Below are positions 2,892 to 56,670 of a stretch of DNA of 64,000 nucleotides, in pieces. Location: the sequence record PP496439.1; one strand, written 5' to 3'. Under the pieces are notes generated by a model, which was given only the letters and a program-made list of their open reading frames with translations, had not been told where the DNA came from and did no database searches. How positions within the stretch are numbered: the first letter of the stretch is position 1; every line of letters starts with the position of its first letter. Position numbers and translations under genes: made by a program.

Positions 2892-3264
2892 TTACGTCTG
2901 GGGTTACAAGCTGTTTGGTGGCCTGTACGAAACAGTGCGGGTCAAGGTCCAAAGCGAAGAGATGGACAAACTGGATAACGTCTTCCTCAGTGAAACGGAT
3001 GCCCGTAAAGCAGTCGAGACGTTGAACTACAAACGCATTCAAGGTGCCGTTACCTACTTGCACGCTCTCAACAAACTCGACACCGAATCGGTGCAGGGTG
3101 AGCAGGCTGTGTACAACGTGACTGCAGGGTATGGCGAACCCGACGCGTGTATAGACGGTTACGAAGATAGGTTGCTGCTCAGAACCAAGACGGCATGCCT
3201 GATTCGCTTTGACCGCCGTATCACTCAGAGCTCACGCAACATTCCCTTTCCGGAGATCCTATGA
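2881..3264 (+). CDS. Hypothetical protein (127 aa)
   Basis: ORF in the plus-strand cluster with overlapping start/stop. Confidence 0.6.
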   Translation: MWIDYVWGYKLFGGLYETVRVKVQSEEMDKLDNVFLSETDARKAVETLNYKRIQGAVTYLHALNKLDTESVQGEQAVYNVTAGYGEPDACIDGYEDRLLLRTKTACLIRFDRRITQSSRNIPFPEIL

Positions 3265-39443: not shown

Positions 39444-40451
39444 TCAGGCGAGGAATCTGTGTAAGCCCGAGGAATATTTGTTCAGGTACATGGTCATCAC
39501 CTTATTGGACGCGGTGGTGGCTCGGTTACCTGATCGGTTAAACGACATATGCAACCAAGGTCGGTTCCCGTGTTCAAAGATGAACTGGTCATAATTGATG
39601 TTGTCTTTGACCCAATTGGCACGATCCCAATATTCTTGATTGCTAATGCCGGGCCACTGTACATCGATGGCTTGTCCCGTCTCATGCTGGGACCTACCAT
39701 TCTGCTGTGTACGGAAACCGGAGTTGAAGGAGAAACCTGGGTAGGCGTCCCACAACGGTTCCAGTATATGCTCGGCCAATGCCTTGAGGTTGCAAACTAT
39801 CTCCTGTTCCGTCAAGCCCCGTTGAGCCTTGATGGTGTGAGGGAAAGCAGTCTTGATCGATACGTTAGCCAACGTAAACCTTGCGGATAGACGCAGCCCG
39901 TAATCCAGCGGTAGAGTAATCATGGCGCAGTCAGTGATAGGTGTAACTCGGTCCGGCGGGGGCACCTTGTTCTCTTCCTGTGCGGGTGTGTCTATTGGCG
40001 GTGGCGGTGAAGTCTGGGGTGCCGGTGGATAACTCTGCTGCGGAGTACCGGGACTGGTCTCGTATTCATCAGCGAAAGCGTCGTAACCGGCAGTCCGAAT
40101 AAGCTTGGCTGCATTCTCAGGGCTGTTCTGATCCACCGGAATAATAGTGGCAGCGATAATCTCCACCTTACCCTTATCCGATGTACCGTCACCTACCAGC
40201 ACAGTAGGTGAGCCTGTCATGGGTGCGTCATTGTCTTGGAACCCGTCACCCAGTCGGGCAACTGGTAGTCCGTTGGTGAACACCGTGGCACTCCCAACTC
40301 TTTGCGAAGTAGGTCCGGGTGGGCCAATCCAGGTATCGCTGACCCGTACAACAGGGAAGCCATTGACCATGTGATTCGGGGATCCAGACACTGCCACCCG
40401 TTTAGCGTTTGACAAGTCTGGGCCTTGCCGGGCCACTGGTTTCAATGCCAT
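39444..40451 (-). CDS. PAAR-like spike tip fused to a peptidase M15A domain
   Basis: N-terminal VARQG/VVRVSD/VARLGD with GSxxVxxNG repeats. C-terminal NSGFR...SQHETGQAID...WLHMS. Confidence 0.85.
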   Translation of the reverse strand: MALKPVARQGPDLSNAKRVAVSGSPNHMVNGFPVVRVSDTWIGPPGPTSQRVGSATVFTNGLPVARLGDGFQDNDAPMTGSPTVLVGDGTSDKGKVEIIAATIIPVDQNSPENAAKLIRTAGYDAFADEYETSPGTPQQSYPPAPQTSPPPPIDTPAQEENKVPPPDRVTPITDCAMITLPLDYGLRLSARFTLANVSIKTAFPHTIKAQRGLTEQEIVCNLKALAEHILEPLWDAYPGFSFNSGFRTQQNGRSQHETGQAIDVQWPGISNQEYWDRANWVKDNINYDQFIFEHGNRPWLHMSFNRSGNRATTASNKVMTMYLNKYSSGLHRFLA

Positions 40452-44450: not shown

Positions 44451-47400
44451 TTAGAAGGATGAATTGTTGACCATCATCACCATAATGTCATCGATGTTCT
44501 TGGCCGCTTTGGTCGTACCATTACCAGAGTTGCTGCCCCCACCACCGGATTGAACCACTTGTGGTGCAGGTTGTTCTTTAACCGCATTGGTGGTACGGTC
44601 CTGTGTCTGAATGAGTGCTGCCGTCTGTGCAGTCTGCAACTGCGACTTGCTCTCATTTAGATTGCTGCGTGCGGAACCAACGTCCTGCAGGTTGCTGTTG
44701 GCTGCACTCAGGGACTTGAACTCACCTGTGACAAGGGGTGCCGAAGATTCTACTGGCTTGATCATCGACAGGCGTTGTGCTGGTTCGGTCAGGACACCTT
44801 TGCTAACCTGGGGGTCCAGCATCACTGCCGGATCGGTAGGCTTGCTCTGGGTTATAGGAACCGGACCCGTAATTCCTTTGGTTGCCGACATTGGCTGATT
44901 AGCCGCAGGCGTGGACACAGTGGTGGCTGGCAGCGGAGTAATGCCTGGAATGAATGGCGTGGTAGGTGCAGCGTCGCCTTTAACCGGTACGTCGGTAGCC
45001 GGGCCAGCCTTGCCGATAGCCAGTGGCGCTATTACCTTGCCGTTGGTATCCACCTTTGGTACGGTCATGGACGTACTGATCGCAGCATCCACCTTGTTCT
45101 TCATATCCTTGCTGTACTTCTGGTTGTTCTCCGTACCATTCCAGGCGTCAAGCATTTCGATGTCGGAGATCTGACCTTGGTAGCCTTCCTGACGGAACAC
45201 TGCCTTGGCAATCGCCATCATCGTCGGCTGGTCGTTAGGATCCAGCTTCTGGTTTGGATCGATACCGGTTTCCTTCGAGACGGCCGTGACATAGCCACTG
45301 GTATCGTTCTCGTTCGGCGGTGTCAGCTTGTTGACCAACTGCTTCAAGGTCATGCCTTCCGCAGACACGTGCTTACGCGCCAGCTTGAACCACGCCCTCG
45401 CACCGTGCACGACAGTATCGAACTTCTCGAAGCCACCTTCCTGACCGACTTCACCTACCCACTGGTTCTTGTCGCTGGCCCGGATGTTACCTGGGTTGAA
45501 GTTCCGGGTTGCCAGTGTGGCTTGTCCTTTGAGTGGCCCAGAACCGGAACCCTGATACGATACGCTCTGATCCAGCGTACCCGGCTGCGGCAGAACAGGA
45601 ATGGCTTGTCCCTTGATGTTCGGCGATGCGCTGAAGTCTTCGGCAGGGCTGGATACGGACTGTTCTTTGTCGAACCAGTTCATCGGGTTGATGCGGGTTG
45701 CCAGATCCTTGGCTTTCTGCACCATATCTGCAATACGGTTCGGGTTGCTGAAGAAGTCGATGGCCGCACCGATGGCGATACCCGTCGGGCCAAAGATTGC
45801 ACCCTTGAGTCCACCTTCACCAAGGTAATCCTTAGCGGTGTCCAGCATGTTCGTGCCGAGCTTGGTCACAGAGTCCAGTGTACCCGACGCCAGATCCTGT
45901 ACCGACTTCCAGCCCTCCGTGCCCCACGTTGTGACAGTATCCCAGCCTTTGCTTAGGCCGGTCATCATGTCATTAGTGAAACCTTCCATGTACTTCGATG
46001 CTTTGTCCAGGCCACCCGCTACGGTGTCGGTGACGAACTTGGCTGCAGGCCCTAGTACATCGGTAACCTTGTCCAGCCCCGCATAGATATCTTTGGTGTC
46101 GATCAAGCCGAACGACAACCCCGAGGCAATAGAGGACAGTGCCGCTTGAGACTTCTGACCGAACGTGGCTTCTTGACCCGGCTTCAACCCAGCAATGTCT
46201 GCTGCGTTGTTCCAACCGTCGAACCCATCGTAGGCCGCCATCGCAGCAATACCAATAGGACCTAAGAGTTTGCTGGCGCCGGAAAGCAGCCCTCGACCTG
46301 CCAGCCGTGCTACCTTACCCCCAGCTTTGGCTAACCCAACGCCTCGACTGGCAAGCTTACCTGCACGCGTGGCTGGCCTTGGCCGGGCCGACGGGACGTG
46401 GGGCTCACCAGCAGATGGACCAGTTGGATGCGGCGTAGAAGAGTTACGAGGACGAACCGATCCGGTGGCTGTATCCAGAACAGCGTCAATGTTGTCATCT
46501 GTTTGGTCACGACCACGACGCAGCCCAACCAGACTACCAATAGCCCCTGCACCAGCACCTACAAAAGCTGCCATCTTGCCGACGCGGCCCGTAGCGAAGC
46601 GGCCAACACCTTTGGCAGCACGTCCCAGCCGACTGCCACCCCGAGCAGCACCTTCCGCTGTACCCCTTGCAGCTCCTTTGCGTGCAGCACGGCCTGTGAG
46701 GATAGCCGAACCAGCGGCACCCAGACCCCCCACGATACCGTCGGACAATCCTAGAGCAGCGTCGAAGTTACCCAAGCCTAGAGCATTGAGCAAGCCAGAG
46801 ATTGCGGTGGACGCTACGCCTTTACCAGCGGCAACGATGCCGGGGTTACGGACGAAGCGATCACTCAATTTGTTCTTTTGCAGCCCAGTCTCTACGTCGC
46901 TATGATCCAGCAATGACTCATCGAACTTCTCATTCAACTCTTTAAGGTTGAATACGATCTTTTCGTCAGTAGTATCCGACTGAACTTTCTGCAAGATGTT
47001 GGCAACTTTCTTGCTGGTGTGAGCATTCAGCTTACCGTCTGCCCGAAACGCTTTCTGCATAGCCACCACTTGCGCAGCGAATTGCGGAATGGCAGACAGC
47101 TGTTTGATCACACCTTGCATCGCATCCTTGCGTTCATTCAGGCTACCGTTCTTCAACGTCTTGATAGCACCCGCGATGTCCGCGTCTACCGACTGGCGTT
47201 GGAATGCAACCTTCTCATATCCCTTGAGCATGGTTGCAATCTGAGCGTATTCCTTCTCCGAGATGTCGCTGTTATGCGACAGGAGCTTCTCGATGTCCTT
47301 TAACTGCGGGTTCTCTTTCAGCTGGCGCGACTGGCGCAGGAAGCCAACGGTCTCCCCCGCAATAGTGCTCCGGTAGTTCTTACCCAGTCGGCGGTCCGTG

Positions 47401-47966
47401 ATACGATCAGTCATCTGGCTGACGACTTTGTTGCTGTCTACGTGCGCAATCGGAGAAACCGCTTTGAGATCGATAGCTACCGCTTTGGCAGACTCGACAA
47501 CGGCGTGTGCCTGATCAGAGTCAACCGACTTCCGGTTCAACACATCTTCGTACAGCTTGCGCTCGGGACCGGACCGGAACTTCTGAAGACGCTCCAGTGC
47601 ATCCATCTGGTCCTGAATGGTCTTTTGCAGGGACTCATCACCCTGCTTCTGAGCCTTCTTCATCTGCTTCATCAGTTCCAGCTGGGTCTTGCTGTAATCC
47701 AGCAGATCCGACTGGTTGCTCACCGAGTCCAGAATGGTGGTCAACTGATCATGCAAGCCTTTACCCATGAGGAAGGTGGGCACCATGGATTTCATGGCAC
47801 GCTTGAGCACGTCAACGCCTTCCGTGAAAGCACTAGAGGCCAATGCGTTTGACCGCTCGGCCATCTTGAGTTGCTTTTCACTCATCTTGTCCCGATCAAT
47901 GGAACTCGGGTCGATGTTGTTGCTCTTGAGGATGTCTAAGTACGTTTCATTGATTAGGGTCGGCAT
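44451..47966 (-). CDS. Tape measure protein with internal lysozyme-like domain
   Basis: Helical, Ala/Gly-rich; LLGPIGIAAMAAYD; internal RNFNPGNIR...PPNENDTSGY motif; follows the chaperone pair. Confidence 0.85.
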   Translation of the reverse strand: MPTLINETYLDILKSNNIDPSSIDRDKMSEKQLKMAERSNALASSAFTEGVDVLKRAMKSMVPTFLMGKGLHDQLTTILDSVSNQSDLLDYSKTQLELMKQMKKAQKQGDESLQKTIQDQMDALERLQKFRSGPERKLYEDVLNRKSVDSDQAHAVVESAKAVAIDLKAVSPIAHVDSNKVVSQMTDRITDRRLGKNYRSTIAGETVGFLRQSRQLKENPQLKDIEKLLSHNSDISEKEYAQIATMLKGYEKVAFQRQSVDADIAGAIKTLKNGSLNERKDAMQGVIKQLSAIPQFAAQVVAMQKAFRADGKLNAHTSKKVANILQKVQSDTTDEKIVFNLKELNEKFDESLLDHSDVETGLQKNKLSDRFVRNPGIVAAGKGVASTAISGLLNALGLGNFDAALGLSDGIVGGLGAAGSAILTGRAARKGAARGTAEGAARGGSRLGRAAKGVGRFATGRVGKMAAFVGAGAGAIGSLVGLRRGRDQTDDNIDAVLDTATGSVRPRNSSTPHPTGPSAGEPHVPSARPRPATRAGKLASRGVGLAKAGGKVARLAGRGLLSGASKLLGPIGIAAMAAYDGFDGWNNAADIAGLKPGQEATFGQKSQAALSSIASGLSFGLIDTKDIYAGLDKVTDVLGPAAKFVTDTVAGGLDKASKYMEGFTNDMMTGLSKGWDTVTTWGTEGWKSVQDLASGTLDSVTKLGTNMLDTAKDYLGEGGLKGAIFGPTGIAIGAAIDFFSNPNRIADMVQKAKDLATRINPMNWFDKEQSVSSPAEDFSASPNIKGQAIPVLPQPGTLDQSVSYQGSGSGPLKGQATLATRNFNPGNIRASDKNQWVGEVGQEGGFEKFDTVVHGARAWFKLARKHVSAEGMTLKQLVNKLTPPNENDTSGYVTAVSKETGIDPNQKLDPNDQPTMMAIAKAVFRQEGYQGQISDIEMLDAWNGTENNQKYSKDMKNKVDAAISTSMTVPKVDTNGKVIAPLAIGKAGPATDVPVKGDAAPTTPFIPGITPLPATTVSTPAANQPMSATKGITGPVPITQSKPTDPAVMLDPQVSKGVLTEPAQRLSMIKPVESSAPLVTGEFKSLSAANSNLQDVGSARSNLNESKSQLQTAQTAALIQTQDRTTNAVKEQPAPQVVQSGGGGSNSGNGTTKAAKNIDDIMVMMVNNSSF

Positions 47967-47976
47967 GGCCTGTTAC

Positions 47977-48186
47977 CTATTTCCGCTGGATCAAATTGGA
48001 GAGCATCTTCAACATGTTAGCGTTGCGGTCAGCCTCCTCTTTGAGACGGATCGTTAACAGGTTGTTCAGCTTCACCAGTCTGTCGTACGGCATAAATTGA
48101 ATGTGGAAGGCATCAACTATCCCTTCCGCGGCCAAATCGCAAGCCATTTTTAGAAGTAGGCGTGGCTCCACGAAAGGGTGTGACAA
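47977..48186 (-). CDS. gp51-like tail/hub assembly chaperone C-segment (probably reached by +1 frameshift)
   Basis: FMPYDRLVKLNNLLTIRLKEE resembles the gp51-like MxPWER...LL...LxEE pattern. Overlaps the upstream ORF by 74 nt with no good RBS. Confidence 0.6.
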   Translation of the reverse strand: MSHPFVEPRLLLKMACDLAAEGIVDAFHIQFMPYDRLVKLNNLLTIRLKEEADRNANMLKMLSNLIQRK

Positions 48187-49120
48187 GCATCGAGTCCTCC
48201 TTCACCTCGACACGAACATTTTTGATGACCCGTTCAATGAACTGCGGATAGAAGTTCTTTTGACCTTCCTCTTTCTCCGCTTCCATTTTTACCCAATCTT
48301 CGTTGAGCACTTTCTCTTTGACCGGGACGATCAAGTCCGAGATACCGTGGTAGAGCATGGTATCGATGGCCGTCAGCATCATCATCCGCTCGCCTGTAGC
48401 GTCGGCCACCAGCTTCAACATGGGCTCAAGGTCCTGATCACTGCCCAAAGCCAACCATGCGTGAGCCTGATTGATATCCTTGCGAACTTCTTCCGGGACA
48501 TTGAGGTAGGCCAAATGCTGGCGCAGAGTGACCGGCATGAACTCGATGCTCTGCATGCGACCGCTGATCTCAGTATCGAGAATGATCGGCAACTCTACGG
48601 TGAGTTCATCGAATTCCAGCTGAGATGCACGCATGATGTGGTGACATTCTACCTCATCCACCACGAAGGACAGCTGCACCTCTTCCGTACCCATGGTGGA
48701 GAACTTGCGGTACATCGCGATGCAGATGAAGTCACCCATAGTCAGGTCGAGCGGATCGATCCCGGTGGCAGTAATGCCGTCGAGAATGTGCATGAAACGC
48801 TCAATCTCGGAGAACCGCCCTTCACTGACCGTTTCAATCTCGGCAAACGTGTAGGGACGGTAAGACACCGTGACGCCCGCCGGGTAGGGGCGGAACTGGC
48901 TCGGCAGTTCCTTCATCTGGAACCACGGCACGTCCACTTCTTCAGTGGTGAGCTTCTGAGGGGGCAGTGGCTCGGGTGCTGCTTGCATCATGGAGGCCAA
49001 GCTTACTGCATCACCATCCACGGAGTCTTGATCAACGTCGCCCCAATCAAGGCTTTCCTTCTTAGGGTCGGGCGTATCCGCCTGCCGTTGGTGTGGGGGA
49101 ATGGGGTTCTGGGTGAACAT
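48113..49120 (-). CDS. gp26-like baseplate hub/tail assembly chaperone
   Basis: LPSQFRPY...VSYRPYTFAE...LTMGDFICIAMYRK; upstream of the tape measure. Confidence 0.75.
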   Translation of the reverse strand: MFTQNPIPPHQRQADTPDPKKESLDWGDVDQDSVDGDAVSLASMMQAAPEPLPPQKLTTEEVDVPWFQMKELPSQFRPYPAGVTVSYRPYTFAEIETVSEGRFSEIERFMHILDGITATGIDPLDLTMGDFICIAMYRKFSTMGTEEVQLSFVVDEVECHHIMRASQLEFDELTVELPIILDTEISGRMQSIEFMPVTLRQHLAYLNVPEEVRKDINQAHAWLALGSDQDLEPMLKLVADATGERMMMLTAIDTMLYHGISDLIVPVKEKVLNEDWVKMEAEKEEGQKNFYPQFIERVIKNVRVEVKEDSMLVTPFRGATPTSKNGLRFGRGRDS

Positions 49121-49147: not shown

Positions 49148-50230
49148 TTAGCTGAAGAACTGACCGATACTCGTCTTGGCCGACTTGTAGCCACTGGCTA
49201 CCTGGTTTGCACCGCTGTTGATCGCGTTGTTAGCTGACTGCGAGATTCCACTAGTGGCGCTGTCGAACTTGCTGGAGACGGCACCGATGGCACTGGTGTA
49301 AGCACTGCTGACATCGTTCTGCAGGGTGGTCAAGCCGGTAGAGATGCGGTCGATGGCACTGTTGGCCGTGCTACTCAGCCCCGCAGCACTCTTGAGCAAG
49401 CTGGTCGCCGTTCCAGATGGATCCAGGTCGCTACGGGTTGCACCTGGCGAACCGATGACCTCAAGCTTGAGCACGTACTGGCTCAAGTCCCCTTGTGACT
49501 TGCCGGAGAACGTGAGCGTACCGGAAGGAACTACCTTGTACGGTCTAATCTCTACAGTGTCCTTTTGCCGGGACATCTTCTTGATGTACAGCATCTTGTA
49601 CGCATCACCCATGGGCACGATACGACCCCCTGACCCGCCGATGTTCTGGTTCATCCACGTGGTGAAGTAGTTGAACAGACTATTGACATGATCGTCCAAG
49701 AAGACAATCTGGATCGACATGGCGTGCGTACCTTCCATGATGGTGATCGTGGTAGGCCCCATCTGGAAGTCACGGGTGGTCACGTGCGCAGCGTCTTCCT
49801 CGATGTCAATTACCGGGAGCCAAGACTGGAAGTACGAGGGCAGCGCATTGGCGTCGGCCAGCTTGATGTCCCAGAGCTGATCCGTGTTCCACTCCACCTG
49901 TTGCAAGTCCAGCACGTTCTGCAAGTAACCGGAGTGTGCCGGGATAGGAGGTGAAGCGTTGGCATAGTTGCCGATGCTTCCCTGAAACAGCCCGAGGGAC
50001 GTCAGCCCGCTCTTGATGGCCCCCAGTGACAGGGAGTTGTCACCTGTGAGTCGATACAACTTGTCGTTGATCTTTTGTTCAACGTAGCCACCCAGCCTAC
50101 TCTGAATGGTGTTGCCAATGATGCCTGTTACCGCGCCAAGTGATCCACTCTTGCGATAGGTACTGATTGCCTCGATACCCGTAGTGAATGCCCCCAGCGC
50201 GCTATTGGTCTTTAGACTGAAAAGGCCCAT
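49148..50230 (-). CDS. Tail tube initiator (gp54-like)
   Basis: ATG at 50230 follows AGAGG. Tube-like core (IQIVFLDDHVNSLFNYFTTWMN) and a Ser/Thr-rich tail. Confidence 0.6.
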   Translation of the reverse strand: MGLFSLKTNSALGAFTTGIEAISTYRKSGSLGAVTGIIGNTIQSRLGGYVEQKINDKLYRLTGDNSLSLGAIKSGLTSLGLFQGSIGNYANASPPIPAHSGYLQNVLDLQQVEWNTDQLWDIKLADANALPSYFQSWLPVIDIEEDAAHVTTRDFQMGPTTITIMEGTHAMSIQIVFLDDHVNSLFNYFTTWMNQNIGGSGGRIVPMGDAYKMLYIKKMSRQKDTVEIRPYKVVPSGTLTFSGKSQGDLSQYVLKLEVIGSPGATRSDLDPSGTATSLLKSAAGLSSTANSAIDRISTGLTTLQNDVSSAYTSAIGAVSSKFDSATSGISQSANNAINSGANQVASGYKSAKTSIGQFFS

Positions 50231-50302
50231 ACCGATATCCTCTTGTATGTAGCGGCGGCGCATACACGTAATTAGCGTAAGGGCTTAGTTGCCACACAGA
50301 CG

Positions 50303-50910: not shown

Positions 50911-53900
50911 TTACGCCACCTCACGCAGCTTCCACTTGGTTTCGGCCTTGACTGCTTTCGCCAGTGCCCGACCGGCAGCAGCCTCGCTGATCTTGCCGAG
51001 GTCTGTGTTGCCGTCCTGCGTTTCGAGTACGTAGCCAGCCTTGGTCTTGACCAGTGCAATGAAGCGCGTGCCAGACTTGGTTTGGAAGCGACGGATCGTC
51101 TTGCCGGTTACTTCGGTGTTCACCTTGGCAGCGGGTGTACGCTTCTTCGTGCGCAGCGTCAGCGACTTGATCGTTTCCATGACCTCGTCGTAGTTGCCCA
51201 CACTTACACCTGAACGCACGATGGCGTCCAGTTCTGCCTTGGCTTCCGCCTTGCTGTTCGACAGGATGAACCACTCGCTGTCCGAAGACTCCCACTTGAC
51301 CGTAGGAACGATAACCTTGCGACGCACCTGTACAGCCGATGGTTGCTTAGTCATGTCTACCAAGATCCAGCATTCACCTTCGTAGAACATCACGTATGGA
51401 CGCAGTTCACCTTTCGGCACCGCGCGCTTGCGGTCCAGGTGGAAGTTGCGAACGTCGGTGTCGAGTGCAGCCTCGAAGTTCAGGAGTCGGCGCTTGCCTT
51501 GTGTGAACGCGGCTAGTGCGGATTCCAGATCCTTCAAGTAGCGCGGCTGAACCTCGAAGTTCTCTTTCAGCTTGTCGATGACGCTGGACAACGCCCGATA
51601 GGTCGGCACGATTGCATAAATGAACTTCCCGGTCTCGCGGAAGCCCAACTGCGTAGCCATCTTGTCCGTGACATCCGGGTCTTCGCGATCCAATGCCAGC
51701 TGGATCATGTTGTTCAACACACCTGGGTACACGTAGATCTCACCATCAAGATCACGGTTACGTTCCACCACGGCTTTCTTGACCGGGGCATCCGGGATCG
51801 GCGCGGGTGCGTCTTCCGGTTCCTCGGTGTCGTCTTCCTCCGGTTCCTCTACCACTGGATCGGATTCAGGCGTCGAGTACTGGGTGGCGCGTTCCGGCAT
51901 GCCCACCATCTCTGCCAGTCGCTGGCGTACGGTCACCTTGTTCGGCTTGAGGATCACGAACACCGCCAGCTTGTTAACCGAGACCGTGCCGATTTCCTTG
52001 ATCTTCACCTTGAGGGTGTTTTTCCCGGAGCTGATAACCTCTCCATCCCCGTACTCGGTGTGAACCTGCAAACCTTTCATGTCGGCTTCATCAGCCGTCA
52101 AGTCATTGTCTGCCAGCCAGTCGGATACCGGAATGATACCCAGCGCGTCTGTGAACGGCAGCTGCATGTTCGAGGTGTACGGCACCGTGATCAGCGCGGA
52201 GCCCGGCAGGTTACCCGCTGTCGGAATCTCCTTGGCTTTTGTTGGGCCGTCGTACGTCTTGAGAAAGTCGGCGTATTCATCCCGGCGGATCTTGGTGTAC
52301 TGCCCGTAAGCATCTACGTAGCTGAACAGCGAACCCTGATCGTCTTCCGAACCGAACTTGTTGGCGTCCATGATCGAATCAAGAGTCATGCTGACCAGCG
52401 GCAGGTTAGGCAGCTTGTCGTAACGAGCGTCCGACGCCTGGAAGCGAACCATCGTCAAGAGCTTCGACATCATCCGTGCCGTCTTGGTCACGTCGATAGT
52501 GCCGTCGGCAATGATGCGGTCGAAGAAGATCTTGCTGCGTGCACCATACTTGTTCTTCGGGTCGGGGCGGTTGAGTCGCGACTGCCCTTGTTCGAATTCC
52601 CCCGGCGACCATACCGAGTCCGTCGAGATCAAGCGGTTGACGAACTGGAAGTTGTGGCCTGTGTTCAGGGATGTCTCAACCCCGATCAAGCCGATGATAC
52701 TGTCATCCTTCTCGAACTTCGGCAGCAGCTTGTCCTTGTCTGCGGCGTAGTACAGGATAACCTTCTTCTGGAGGTCAGGTGGAAGCGATGCGTGCAATGC
52801 CTGAGCCGATGCCACATACGCACAGAAGATCAGCACCTTTCCGTTCGTTTTGTCGCGGCTGTGCTCATCGAACAACCGGATGATCTCTTTGGCTTTCGGG
52901 CTGATACGATCCGAGCCCTGCAATACCTTGTCACCAACCTTATCGTGCGCCGGTGCCGAGATGAACATTTCCAGTCGCTGCAAGTACGGACGCAGCAGCA
53001 TCTCGATGTTGGCGACGTTTTCCTCACCTTCATCCGACGCTTTCAGTTTCTTCATCAGATCCGCATCGGCCATGATGGCTTCGACGGCATCATTCAGAAT
53101 GTCCTGATAAACGGCCATCTGTTTCTTCGACAGCGACACCTTGTGGAACGTCTCAGTGGCCGCTGGCAACAATGCTGCCCACTCCCGCCGGGACACACGC
53201 ACGTAGTCTGCTGCGCTGTTCATCTGGGTACGCACGTCACGCTCGGCGTTGTTCTTCCAGCTGAGCGGTTTCCCTTGGAACGTCTCGGCAGCGTACCGCT
53301 CGATGAAGTCCTTCTTGGAACCGAACGTCGATGGCGACATGATCGAGAACTGACCTGCCGCATCCGTCAGTTGCCCGTGCACGTAGGTACCTGTGGTCTG
53401 ACGGAGGTTATCCGACAGGGTGGCCTGCGCCCGTACCGAGGAAGATCGTGCACTGTCCAAGTTGGCCAGATACTGCGATTCGTCCATGGACAAGTAGATC
53501 CACTCGAAGCGGCGCATCAGCTCTGAGTTGTTCGACAGGATCAGATCGGTGTTGCCGTACTGAATGCTGTACTGCCCGTTCTTGGGGAAGTCGAAGTCAC
53601 ACAGAACCAACGTGTTGACCGGCGCGTTGTAGATCAAGTTGTACATGTAGTCGTGACCGTAACGGTTGATCACGTCTGTGGACAGCACGATCACGTTGAC
53701 CGAACCTTGGGTCAAGTAAGTGATGTCCTCGATGTAGTTCTTGATCAGGTTCTTCGGGCACATCATCAGCGGACGCTTCTGCTGCTGGCCTTTCAGATCG
53801 CCACGCTCGTAATACTGACCGAGGGTGTACAGGCAGTCCAACACGTTCATCAGCGTCTTACCGCCGCCCGCATCCACGTGGTCAACCTTCTTGTCCGGCT

Positions 53901-56670
53901 GGCGCTGACCCGACACAATGGGTCGGATCTGGTGAGCCAGTGCGGAGAAGTCGGAACGGATGAACGGAACCGGTGACACTTCCGTCTCGTCGTTGACCTT
54001 GACCGGGTTCAGCGAATACTTCGCCTGCTTGGCCGCTACTTGGGACTTCAGTTCGTCCTTGGCCGACTGGTCTGCATACTTCGCCATGGCAAAGATAGAA
54101 GCCACACCTTGCATACGACTGGTGACCGACAACACGTTACTGGTGCCGATGGCCTTCGGATCGCTGAGGACCTTGAACAACGCGTCCGTACCGTCTTGCA
54201 TGGCTTCGACCGCAATACGGCCAATGCCTCGGAGCATAGGGATATTGGAATCCGCAGTCAGATGGCTGAGTCGCAGGTCCTTATACACCTCTTCGAACGG
54301 GTAATCGCCAATGTCGATGTCCCGATCAACCAGACGCTTCGACAGCGAGGACACGGATTGCAGCACCTCGTGGATAGTTGGGTTGCCCCCAGCCGGGAAC
54401 AGGAAGTCTTGAACGCTCTCACCCAGCACGTCAGTCACTGTGGGGGGTACGTCGAAGTCACCTTCCTCGAAGTAATCCGTAACCTTCTTGCCCTTGTAGT
54501 TCAACCACGCGGTCAGCGAGTTACGCAGGTAGCCGAACGACAGCGACTTGGGCGCAACATACTGTTCCAATGTCTTGCTGTATTCCATGACGCTGGCCGG
54601 GGAATAAGCCGAGACGTCATACGTGACCAGTCCACCAGACGAAGTGGTGTAGCTGAGGATGTCCGCGCCCCAGTCAGTGAAGATGTAGTAGGAGCGTAGA
54701 CGGCCTTGAGCGAATTGCTTGATAACCAGATTATCCGTCTTGGCGTTGTCCGGGATCATGTACTGGTTCTGGATGCTGATCTCAGGAGTTTCCTGACCCT
54801 CAACCTCTTTGAACTTCGCTTTGACGCCACCCATGCCCACGTCTTGGCGGGTGTATTCGTTGTCTGCGAAGGCACCGCGATACGAATCCTCGATGGCCTT
54901 CTCGTACTGCGCAACGATCTGTGGATCAGCGGTGGGCACGAACACCAGGTCAGCATCGGGACCAACCATCATCTGGTCACCGTTCAAACGCGAACGCTGC
55001 GGCATTGCGCGGGTATCTGCGATTGCCTTGCCCACGGCACGATAGAACGATGCATCTGTCTTGGCGAACGAGTACTGCGCGTCAGTCATCTGATACGCCC
55101 ACTCGGCCACGTCAACCGGGGCGGGTGGAGAGTGCTGAGTCACGAACGCAGCCACGTCTTCCGAGATAGTGAACTCGGAGAAAGCAACAACCTCAGCGTC
55201 GCCCGCTTCACCGATGTTAGACAGACGACACATGAACGAGCGGGACTTCAGACGCGCCATCGCATCCTTGTAGTCCGCCTTGTCTACCACGTCAGTCTGC
55301 AGTGACGGTGGCACTGGCATCTTGTTGGACGTCAACCAGCCATTGAGGCGGGTCATCGGCGTGTTTTCCAGAAGCCAGTTGATGAAGTCAACCGGTGCCT
55401 TTGGCATGGTTGGTTCTTCCGGCGCGCCCGCAGTCAGGTTGCCGTCCAGCCCCCGGTACGCATGGTTCCAGTTCTTGAGCAGGCGCTCCAGAATCTTGCC
55501 GCCGACTTCCTGCCGCACTTTTTCAAAGGACGGTTTGTCTTCCTTCGAATAGGCGAAGATGATCTTGGCGACCATGCTCTCGTTGACATCAGACCAGTTG
55601 TTGTCGTAGTCCAGATCTTCGATGCGATACTTGCGCAGCACATCTAGCTGTTGCTGGTTGGTGAAGCTGCAATACATCACGTTCTCACCAAGGGTACGAC
55701 GCACGTACGGCATCTTACCGGCGGTGCCCGTGCCATTGAGGAAGCTTACCTCATTGGTGCTTTGTACGCCTGCATCACCACGGGGTGGTGATACTTCGAT
55801 CAGCAGGTTGAGCCCACCAACCAGTTCCTTCAACCCATCTTTCTCGAAGGCGAAGTCGTTCTCGCCCATCAAGATTTCCTTGTCGATGAACGGACTGTTC
55901 AACGCAGATTTGAAGTTGACAGGAATGCGCAACCGCATCTGGCGAGTCATGTCGTCCAACGCCAGCGGATCTTCCATGAACTTGCCCAGTGCAGTCTTGA
56001 GCAGTTCCAGTTGGCTGGTCATCAGTGCGTCGACCTTGGTCTGCATCCGGCTACGCTCGTCCAGCGGCAGATACACCATGGCATTTTGCAGGATCTTAAC
56101 ACGCGGGACAACGTAGGCCATGTCGATTCTGCTTTCGACGCAAATGCCGATTGCGTCAAGCATCTCAGGGACCGAGAATCCGGGGATGCGGGACTCTTTG
56201 ACGTTGCTGCCCATGGCCGGGATAGCCAGCGTGAAGTCACCTCGACCATTCGCCGTCACCTTGGTATACGGCGCCAGCGTACGCATGCCTTCCGACATCT
56301 CGTCCCACTTATCAGCCTTGATCGTAGCACTGTTGGCACGGAAGGAGGCCGGAGGGTTAACGCTGTAGTCCTTGAACTCCAGGCTTTCTTTCATGTCCTG
56401 CAACAGACGCTTGCCATTGTCGAACAACTTCGGCAGCTCGGTCTCGAACAAGTTCGGTACCTTGGACAGTTCGTCCATCAGCGATGCGCCGCCCACGGAC
56501 AGAACCGCGTACGCCATGCTGTGCAGGTCACCAAGCTTGTAGTCGTACGTTGCTTCGTAGTCTTCAGGCTCTTCAACCGGCTCGGCCAATGGTGCTGCCA
56601 GCGAGCGTAAGCGTTCCGTCTCTTCCGGGGCGCGACTACGCCGTTTTGATTTCTTGCTCATGGATTGCAC
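50911..56670 (-). CDS. Very large SNF2-like SF2 helicase/ATPase (1919 aa)
   Basis: DAGGGKT (I), LMMCPKNLI (Ia), DESQ (II), TGT (III), LSKKQMAVY, KVLIFC (IV), TGHNFQ (V), WSP...QGQSRLNR (VI). Confidence 0.85.
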   Translation of the reverse strand: MQSMSKKSKRRSRAPEETERLRSLAAPLAEPVEEPEDYEATYDYKLGDLHSMAYAVLSVGGASLMDELSKVPNLFETELPKLFDNGKRLLQDMKESLEFKDYSVNPPASFRANSATIKADKWDEMSEGMRTLAPYTKVTANGRGDFTLAIPAMGSNVKESRIPGFSVPEMLDAIGICVESRIDMAYVVPRVKILQNAMVYLPLDERSRMQTKVDALMTSQLELLKTALGKFMEDPLALDDMTRQMRLRIPVNFKSALNSPFIDKEILMGENDFAFEKDGLKELVGGLNLLIEVSPPRGDAGVQSTNEVSFLNGTGTAGKMPYVRRTLGENVMYCSFTNQQQLDVLRKYRIEDLDYDNNWSDVNESMVAKIIFAYSKEDKPSFEKVRQEVGGKILERLLKNWNHAYRGLDGNLTAGAPEEPTMPKAPVDFINWLLENTPMTRLNGWLTSNKMPVPPSLQTDVVDKADYKDAMARLKSRSFMCRLSNIGEAGDAEVVAFSEFTISEDVAAFVTQHSPPAPVDVAEWAYQMTDAQYSFAKTDASFYRAVGKAIADTRAMPQRSRLNGDQMMVGPDADLVFVPTADPQIVAQYEKAIEDSYRGAFADNEYTRQDVGMGGVKAKFKEVEGQETPEISIQNQYMIPDNAKTDNLVIKQFAQGRLRSYYIFTDWGADILSYTTSSGGLVTYDVSAYSPASVMEYSKTLEQYVAPKSLSFGYLRNSLTAWLNYKGKKVTDYFEEGDFDVPPTVTDVLGESVQDFLFPAGGNPTIHEVLQSVSSLSKRLVDRDIDIGDYPFEEVYKDLRLSHLTADSNIPMLRGIGRIAVEAMQDGTDALFKVLSDPKAIGTSNVLSVTSRMQGVASIFAMAKYADQSAKDELKSQVAAKQAKYSLNPVKVNDETEVSPVPFIRSDFSALAHQIRPIVSGQRQPDKKVDHVDAGGGKTLMNVLDCLYTLGQYYERGDLKGQQQKRPLMMCPKNLIKNYIEDITYLTQGSVNVIVLSTDVINRYGHDYMYNLIYNAPVNTLVLCDFDFPKNGQYSIQYGNTDLILSNNSELMRRFEWIYLSMDESQYLANLDSARSSSVRAQATLSDNLRQTTGTYVHGQLTDAAGQFSIMSPSTFGSKKDFIERYAAETFQGKPLSWKNNAERDVRTQMNSAADYVRVSRREWAALLPAATETFHKVSLSKKQMAVYQDILNDAVEAIMADADLMKKLKASDEGEENVANIEMLLRPYLQRLEMFISAPAHDKVGDKVLQGSDRISPKAKEIIRLFDEHSRDKTNGKVLIFCAYVASAQALHASLPPDLQKKVILYYAADKDKLLPKFEKDDSIIGLIGVETSLNTGHNFQFVNRLISTDSVWSPGEFEQGQSRLNRPDPKNKYGARSKIFFDRIIADGTIDVTKTARMMSKLLTMVRFQASDARYDKLPNLPLVSMTLDSIMDANKFGSEDDQGSLFSYVDAYGQYTKIRRDEYADFLKTYDGPTKAKEIPTAGNLPGSALITVPYTSNMQLPFTDALGIIPVSDWLADNDLTADEADMKGLQVHTEYGDGEVISSGKNTLKVKIKEIGTVSVNKLAVFVILKPNKVTVRQRLAEMVGMPERATQYSTPESDPVVEEPEEDDTEEPEDAPAPIPDAPVKKAVVERNRDLDGEIYVYPGVLNNMIQLALDREDPDVTDKMATQLGFRETGKFIYAIVPTYRALSSVIDKLKENFEVQPRYLKDLESALAAFTQGKRRLLNFEAALDTDVRNFHLDRKRAVPKGELRPYVMFYEGECWILVDMTKQPSAVQVRRKVIVPTVKWESSDSEWFILSNSKAEAKAELDAIVRSGVSVGNYDEVMETIKSLTLRTKKRTPAAKVNTEVTGKTIRRFQTKSGTRFIALVKTKAGYVLETQDGNTDLGKISEAAAGRALAKAVKAETKWKLREVA

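Follow-up and report, generated by a model that had tools for sequence, protein, structure and literature searches.

How are two overlapping open reading frames (ORFs), placed directly before a tape-measure-like gene and the second without a conserved start of its own, turned into protein? The question is raised by a stretch of 64,000 nucleotides from sequence record PP496439.1 (hereafter the window), on whose minus strand all of its features discussed here are located. The product of the first frame, ORF A (49120-48113), shares 99.7% identity with one from Pseudomonas phage vB_PpuM-Illi-2, and the window matches that P. putida jumbo phage, described as a 201-kb myovirus of CEPEST cluster G3 (10.1101/2024.03.26.586772). 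ORF A encodes 335 amino acids, predicted to be the N part (TAC-N, 'G') of a tail assembly chaperone of the T4 gp26/gp51 family. ORF B (48186-47977) lies in the +1 frame relative to ORF A and ends with a stop at 47977; as the initial annotation had it, the two overlap by 74 nt. A 1171-aa tape-measure-like gene with a lytic domain (44451..47966; phrog_2276, E 2e-18; phrog_873, E 1.5e-33) starts 10 nt after ORF B, and baseplate genes come next. In our reading, to which we assign a probability of roughly 87%, ORF A and ORF B are one tail-assembly-chaperone gene with a +1 ribosomal frameshift at UUU-C, giving predicted forms of 335 and 380 aa. Both of these lengths had been proposed before and were recovered here, the longer one when TTTC is read as a single step. 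The fusion would carry a +1-frame segment of 65 aa (47977..48174) as its predicted C-terminal chaperone domain (TAC-C, 'T'), and its predicted tryptic junction peptide is EDSMLVTPFVEPR.

Our comparison covers 105 loci, 12 of them from isolate phages (of Pseudomonas, Vibrio, Rhizobium, Acinetobacter, Escherichia, and Thermus) and 93 environmental. The motif played no part in collecting loci, which were retrieved by tblastn or by patterns lying in the N-terminal half; N-terminal peptide patterns found the environmental ones. Including the window, this makes 106 sequences, 17 of which are without the full junction; the other 89 contain 55 distinct junctions, reduced to 48 representatives at <70% identity (median 32%). 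Column statistics were computed on 45 of these, with L011, L059, and L088 left out for register shifts; in L011 the TTT is counted one codon before the aligned column. The gene order around the junction is widely shared. Sheath and tube genes are found upstream of the chaperone locus in isolate phages, and a long ORF lies downstream in 40 of the 48 representatives, with the +1 frame usually ending beside it; of the remainder, 5 come from contigs that are cut off. In Thermus phage phiLo, no long ORF is adjacent downstream: its homologue (L012, 3974-4889), annotated as 'DNA methylase', possesses CCG TTT CGT and a +1 ORF, and no tape measure gene comes after it.

Some further features of the neighborhood deserve a short description. 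The gene preceding ORF A (49148-50263) encodes a 371-aa protein whose long C-terminal extension is rich in Ser and Ala, and the gene found at the same place in relatives measures 140-270 aa. At 39444-40451, a PAAR domain is joined via a Pro-rich linker to an endolysin-like peptidase domain. A gene for a 1919-aa helicase-family protein (50911-56670) separates the tail module from an HNH endonuclease gene. The minus strand between 47500 and 50500 showed neither a promoter- nor a terminator-like site, and no tRNA genes were found within the window. A look-up of sequencing runs for the region listed none, which weighs in neither direction.

The first step is to establish what ORF A is. A search against 1.84 billion representatives returned 404 matches, and among 146 aligned homologues PF12322 is matched by 94 and phrog_150 by 93; the window protein alone matches neither. 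The ORF A profile meets T4 gp51 with a probability of 90.7 and T4 gp26 with one of 29, and full-length gp51 aligns with ORF A. Its predicted model (pLDDT 84) has Foldseek matches in BFVD to predicted baseplate hub subunits (E 1e-6 to 1e-3), and no solved structure was matched at E 0.001. Owing to the homologues' PF12322 and phrog_150 matches, the gp51 profile alignment, and the predicted fold matches, we assign ORF A to the gp26/gp51 family. Vladimirov, Gautam, and Davidson reportedly identified T4 gp26/gp51 (genes 26/51) as short and long tail chaperones in 2022. A single-protein scan of viral contigs gave no match, and a scan of GTDB yielded one locus, whose site reads CCC TTT CGC. The family also has its peculiarities. 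Rhizobium phage homologues of ORF A are annotated as 'peptidase domain', and in this phage and its closest kin ORF A has other sequence (48281-48336) where most relatives have two CxxC motifs, as well as an insertion of about 25 residues near the C terminus.

Is ORF B translated at all? If it were not, the open +1 frame and the motif being by-products, one could point out that no Pfam or PHROG family matches more than 2 of its 45 members and that it is without annotation in 2 of the 4 close phages and in several others. The frame itself speaks against this. With 15 codons counted on each side of the site in the 48 representatives, the +1 frame holds 56 stops in the 720 codons before it and 0 in the 720 after it, and it then stays open for 43-80 codons; the -1 frame meets a stop after 4 codons (median). 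In most columns upstream of the site, +1-frame similarity does not exceed zero; it climbs from the site onward. The conservation of frame-0 third positions after the site (T at +20 in 43 of 45) stems from their being the second positions of +1 codons. When the ORF B sequences of 42 relatives, with the window and its two closest left out, were turned into a profile, this retrieved the window's segment at E 4.9e-7 out of 1431 six-frame pieces, in an alignment that begins at the shift-site Phe. Against phage Peetri, the +1 frame exhibits an excess of synonymous changes (8, next to 2 non-synonymous). These comparisons show selection on the +1 frame, as read from its conservation, to begin at the shift site, and the stop counts, the profile match, and the Peetri changes bring the idea of an untranslated ORF B close to refutation; we consider it hardly conceivable. 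The label 'gp51-like', originally given to ORF B, is another matter. It finds no statistical backing (hhalign probability 0.5 with full gp51 and 11.4 with a 3-sequence alignment; hmmsearch E 0.67 or worse), full-length gp51 aligns with ORF A, and the likeness of ORF B to the last 50 residues of gp51 is one seen by eye only.

The candidate shift site itself, CCC-TTT-CGT at 48178-48170 (TTT at 48175-48173), is in frame in ORF A, just as first described. That description had proposed to look for TTT-C at this junction in related phages, and the motif turns out to be kept at the codon level across the 48 lineages. The Phe codon at the site is TTT in all 48 representatives, 47 times directly after Pro and once a codon earlier. 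In Vibrio phage Va2, which has no PFR, TTT-CCC stands one codon earlier and again supplies UUU-C. Other Phe codons of the same genes are TTT in 372 of 576 cases and TTC in 204, and four other conserved Phe columns have TTT in 22/33, 21/30, 29/44, and 27/42. Since TTT amounts to only 64-70% there, synonymous Phe sites are otherwise free. The rule holds for all 12 genes that otherwise prefer TTC and for all 25 representatives below 40% identity. In the window, TTT is rarer than TTC (35 of the 367 Phe codons of 14 long ORFs), and ORF A uses it for 3 of its 15 Phe, at residues 92, 316 (the shift site), and 329, a rarity that takes the TTT at the site beyond chance. The computed probability, 1e-11.6, overstates the certainty, as the representatives are related.

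The bases around the TTT are constrained as well. It is followed by C in 47 representatives and by T in one, so that TTT-C is present in 47 of 48 and in-frame TTT-CGY in 42. Where the site has Arg, the codon is CGT (36) or CGC (6) and no other (42/42), though AGA is the commonest Arg codon of these genes. At the protein level, the Arg column of 146 proteins has R 125 times, H 6, C 5, P 2, and L 2, and never K, a pattern of replacement that would fit a need for C or U as the first base of the codon. Before the TTT, CCN is found in 47 of 48 (CCC 32, CCG 10, CCT 3, CCA 2). At the nucleotide level, this phage and Peetri share an identical block of 81 nt (48159..48239) that spans both the shift site and a Shine-Dalgarno (SD)-like patch upstream of it. 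It is the longest identical run in ORF A, which has 155 differences in 1008 nt (the next longest run is 32), and none of 5000 random placements reached such a length.

The TTT conservation alone is nevertheless no proof because overlapping genes can fix a codon too. After the TTT, frame 0 continues for 19 codons including the stop, and in this dual-coded tail (48113..48172) frame 0 ends TAC-N and frame +1 forms the predicted first helix of TAC-C. The initial annotation regarded these 19 codons as seemingly non-conserved, an impression that does not survive the alignment: the tail bears a conserved R-I-x-F-G (its IRFG dual-coded), with F and G each in 39 of 45 representatives in ungapped register and in 124 and 128, respectively, of 146 proteins. 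In frame +1, L is found in 42 of 45 and A in 36 of 45. The codons for F329/G330 are TTT in 44/44 and GGC in 38/44 (TTT GGC at 48136-48131 in the window) since these are what it takes to encode Phe-Gly in frame 0 together with Leu-Ala in frame +1. Two things follow. The short form would have a selected C terminus of its own, and, dual coding being able to fix a TTT, the argument for the frameshift is carried by the upstream +1 stops and the missing starts.

Those starts have to be considered together with the SD-like patch, AAGGAGG at 48196..48202, which lies 20 nt before the TTT and is a candidate stimulator of the shift or ribosome-binding site of a TTG at 48184..48186. A similar patch is present in 39 of the 48 loci, at 14-23 nt from the TTT in 36 of these 39 (mode 19; full range 14-29 nt). 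The amino acids encoded under it differ between loci (DGG, KED, PEV, GRD), and its mean duplex energy of -9.5 kcal/mol compares with -6.9 for synonymous re-codings, 0 of 300 being as good, and with -3.2 for other gene windows. The patch is thus beyond what the encoded amino acids explain.

Could ORF B then be a separate small gene, with the conserved codons reflecting two overlapping proteins? It had been claimed that the only GGAG is situated 18 nt from the internal ATG. There are in fact two (48200 and 48169), the upstream one within the AAGGAGG, 9 nt before the TTG at 48186 (duplex -11.7 kcal/mol), from which a protein of 69 aa would be made. Because of this spacing, a stand-alone ORF B is possible in this phage, where we consider minor initiation at the TTG possible; AAGGAGG is unchanged in all 4 close phages examined. 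In 2 of the 4 close phages, KoPa-5 and Voja-6, ORF B is annotated with a length of 56 aa, starting at the ATG of 48145..48147, and 6 of 48 representatives including the window have an ATG at this codon, +9. This ATG has no SD pairing upstream (+1.7 kcal/mol), and starting there would omit the conserved Leu at +6/+7 (+6 in 37 of 45) and cut the conserved first helix. Across the family, relatives have no start position for ORF B in common: 7 of 48 are without ATG, GTG, or TTG up to codon +10, 19 are without ATG, and a +1 start with an SD is missing in 29 and scattered over various places in the other 19. Among the 39 relatives with the patch, an open +1 start follows it by 4-12 nt in only 8 (10 when 2 blocked by stops are counted, with 6.3 expected by chance), and 19 have a start in no frame after it, on which grounds the patch was rejected as a family-wide initiation signal. 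Moreover, the +1 frame has a stop at codon -4 in 9 of 45 and at codon -3 in 6 of 45, and Vibrio phage GR11A has a stop at the very position of the window's TTG. We therefore regard a separate gene as improbable. The refuting condition named in the initial annotation, independent initiation together with an unconserved motif, has come out in its favor: the motif is conserved and a conserved ORF B start is missing, which supports the G/GT-type chaperone reading via a +1 frameshift proposed in the initial annotation, albeit with the qualifications given here. Apart from this, frame-0 starts after the patch occur in 14 of 39 relatives (10.1 expected), and the window has an in-frame ATG (M311, 48190-48188) 5 nt after the AAGGAGG; a start there followed by the shift would yield a stand-alone form of 70 aa.

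How might the +1 frameshift proceed? At UUU-C, a minority of the ribosomes would move ahead by one base, the peptidyl-tRNA-Phe re-pairing from UUU to UUC in the P site and decoding resuming at GUG, so that the predicted 335-aa short and 380-aa long forms are both made. In the 32 of 48 representatives with CCC just before the TTT, tRNA-Pro could likewise shift to CCU, and the protein made would be no different. The SD-like patch, mostly 14-23 nt upstream, may stay paired to the 16S rRNA and slow or loosen the ribosome at the site. If lambda G/GT is a guide, the tape measure protein would be coated by many copies of the short form, and a few of the long form would recruit the tail tube protein. 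Two other conceivable stimulators were rejected: downstream RNA structure, of which none was found (mean z -0.3; z 0.37), and a hungry A-site codon, CGU making up 130 of 413 Arg codons and thus not being rare. As neither was found, a low shift efficiency is expected, which would suit a lambda-like ratio; the G to GT ratio of lambda is given as 30:1 (PMC5009743). According to the same source, UUU_Ynn is prone to +1 shifts in bacteria without a following stop.

The fusion could also be real and arise by another route, be it a P-site slip on CCC-U, a -2 shift, or slippage of the RNA polymerase. The enrichment of CCC before the TTT (32 of 47 Pro codons, compared with 102 of 617 elsewhere) would be in line with the first of these, and a slip on CCC-U yields the same peptide, yet 15 of 48 have CCG, CCT, or CCA and still keep TTT-Y. 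A -2 shift would place tRNA-Phe on CCU without re-pairing. Base runs at the site are only three long, and runs of three bases are too short for polymerase slippage. All in all, we judge such a route very unlikely and retain the +1 shift at UUU-C.

The part played by the patch is less clear-cut. In known cases, stimulatory SD sequences are described 3 nt upstream for +1 and 9-14 nt upstream for -1 shifts (PMC5009743), and in vitro, SD pairing is stated to persist up to a spacer of 21 nt, to slow translocation 5-10 fold, and to favor back-slippage (10.1101/2020.04.16.045807). Both the 3-nt position of known +1 stimulators and the tendency of long spacers to cause backward slips speak against a stimulatory effect of the patch on +1 shifts; the patch may serve as a pause or tuning element, and we advance its stimulatory role in the +1 shift as a hypothesis. 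A bolder proposition would combine two ideas. In the first, an SD tether acting over a long range (~18-20 nt upstream) represents a novel type of stimulator for UUU-C +1 shifts in bacteria, used across a wide clade of large myophages; in the second, at least four routes have led to the long form within the gp26 chaperone family (poly-T -1, prfB-like +1, UUU-C +1, and a second gene). We offer this combination tentatively and doubt that both ideas will hold.

The locus shares features with several known systems. Tail-assembly-chaperone frameshifts are widespread, with lambda gpG/gpGT as the model case (PMC5009743); as there, two overlapping ORFs stand just before the tape measure gene, the second has no conserved start of its own, and a short and a long form are predicted. 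Unlike lambda and P2, which use -1, and Mu, which uses -2 (PMC3498833), the shift here would go in the +1 direction at UUU-C, in a gene whose N part is of the T4 gp26/gp51 family. G/GT-type systems are characterized by a fusion that is made at low frequency, contacts the tape measure and tube proteins, and is missing from virions. A canonical -1 slippery heptamer does not apply to ORF B in its +1 frame, the -1 frame being soon closed. With the T4 chaperones gp26/gp51 the system has the PF12322 family and the predicted short and long forms in common, but T4 uses two genes, whereas phages of this clade exhibit the +1 site.

Relatives of gp26 elsewhere end in different ways. Poly-T -1 sites are located at the ends of gp26-like genes in Aeromonas phage 65 (L109, about 3202) and Xanthomonas phage XacN1 (L110, about 3046), where the annotated downstream ORFs start late. 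In Ralstonia phage RP13 (LC554890; L111, about 3017-3034) the gp26-like gene ends AGG GGG TAT CTT TGA C, from which an unannotated +1 ORF extends to the next long gene. Cobetia phage Carin-5 (PV155638; L108, about 3182-3197) has the same layout with CCT (AGG GGG TAC CCT TGA C), and here too a +1 ORF that is not annotated precedes the next long gene. We take both gene ends to be prfB-like +1 cassettes. In phage T5 (L114, 6625-7459), an in-frame TTT CGT occurs four codons before the stop of T5.143, and, from slightly upstream on, the +1 frame stays open through T5.142. For T4-like phages, poly-T -1 sites are stated in PMC12846349.

The initial annotation held UUU-CGN to be a +1 signal best known from eukaryotic viruses. 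The shared UUU_CGN stands, but the signal is not only eukaryotic, considering the bacterial UUU_Ynn (PMC5009743) and a halovirus proposal for TTT-CGn (PMC7230728). With influenza PA-X (UCC_UUU_CGU) and the amalgaviruses (UUU_CGN), the site has in common the UUU_CGU core, the P-site re-pairing from UUU to UUC (proposed here), and the lack of a 3' structure (PMC3498833); unlike PA-X, it would act on a bacterial rather than a eukaryotic ribosome, has CCN (Pro) instead of UCC before UUU in 47 of 48, and contains a CGU that is not rare. In the HF1-group haloviruses, TTT-CGn has been put forward, by proposal only, as a +1 site joining chaperone ORFs (PMC7230728), and in HSTV-2 a +1 shift is rated very likely (PMC5009743). 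There too, the proposed site joins two chaperone ORFs before a myovirus tape measure gene, but those viruses have archaeal hosts and the HF1 group comprises six close genomes, whereas here 48 lineages with bacterial hosts from several phyla are involved; an upstream SD-like patch and a long dual-coded tail further set the present sites apart from those of the HF1 group. Finally, prfB is likewise a case of a bacterial +1 shift (predicted here) with an internal SD-like sequence upstream (PMC5009743), but its SD lies 3 nt upstream and its CUU precedes a stop codon, whereas the spacer here is mostly 14-23 nt and the UUU is followed by a sense codon.

We found no report of this site in these phages in the literature, though +1 cases of this kind may be listed in Vladimirov 2022 and Xu 2004, and neither 'frameshift' nor 'chaperone' was found in the main text of the paper describing the collection (10.1101/2024.03.26.586772). 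Judged by its sequence, the junction is a strongly conserved, unannotated +1 frameshift candidate within a known kind of system. For annotation, this means that ORF A and ORF B would be corrected to one gene; none of the 14 isolate records of the clade examined joins the two ORFs, and several leave out ORF B. Near-identical phages grow on laboratory P. putida, which makes both the shift and the unusual SD spacing directly testable. If the reading is true, a productive UUU-C +1 shift with neither a stop nor a rare codon would be added to the short list of bacterial +1 signals, and the T4 gp26/gp51 pair would be tied, in another phage clade, to the lambda G/GT scheme.
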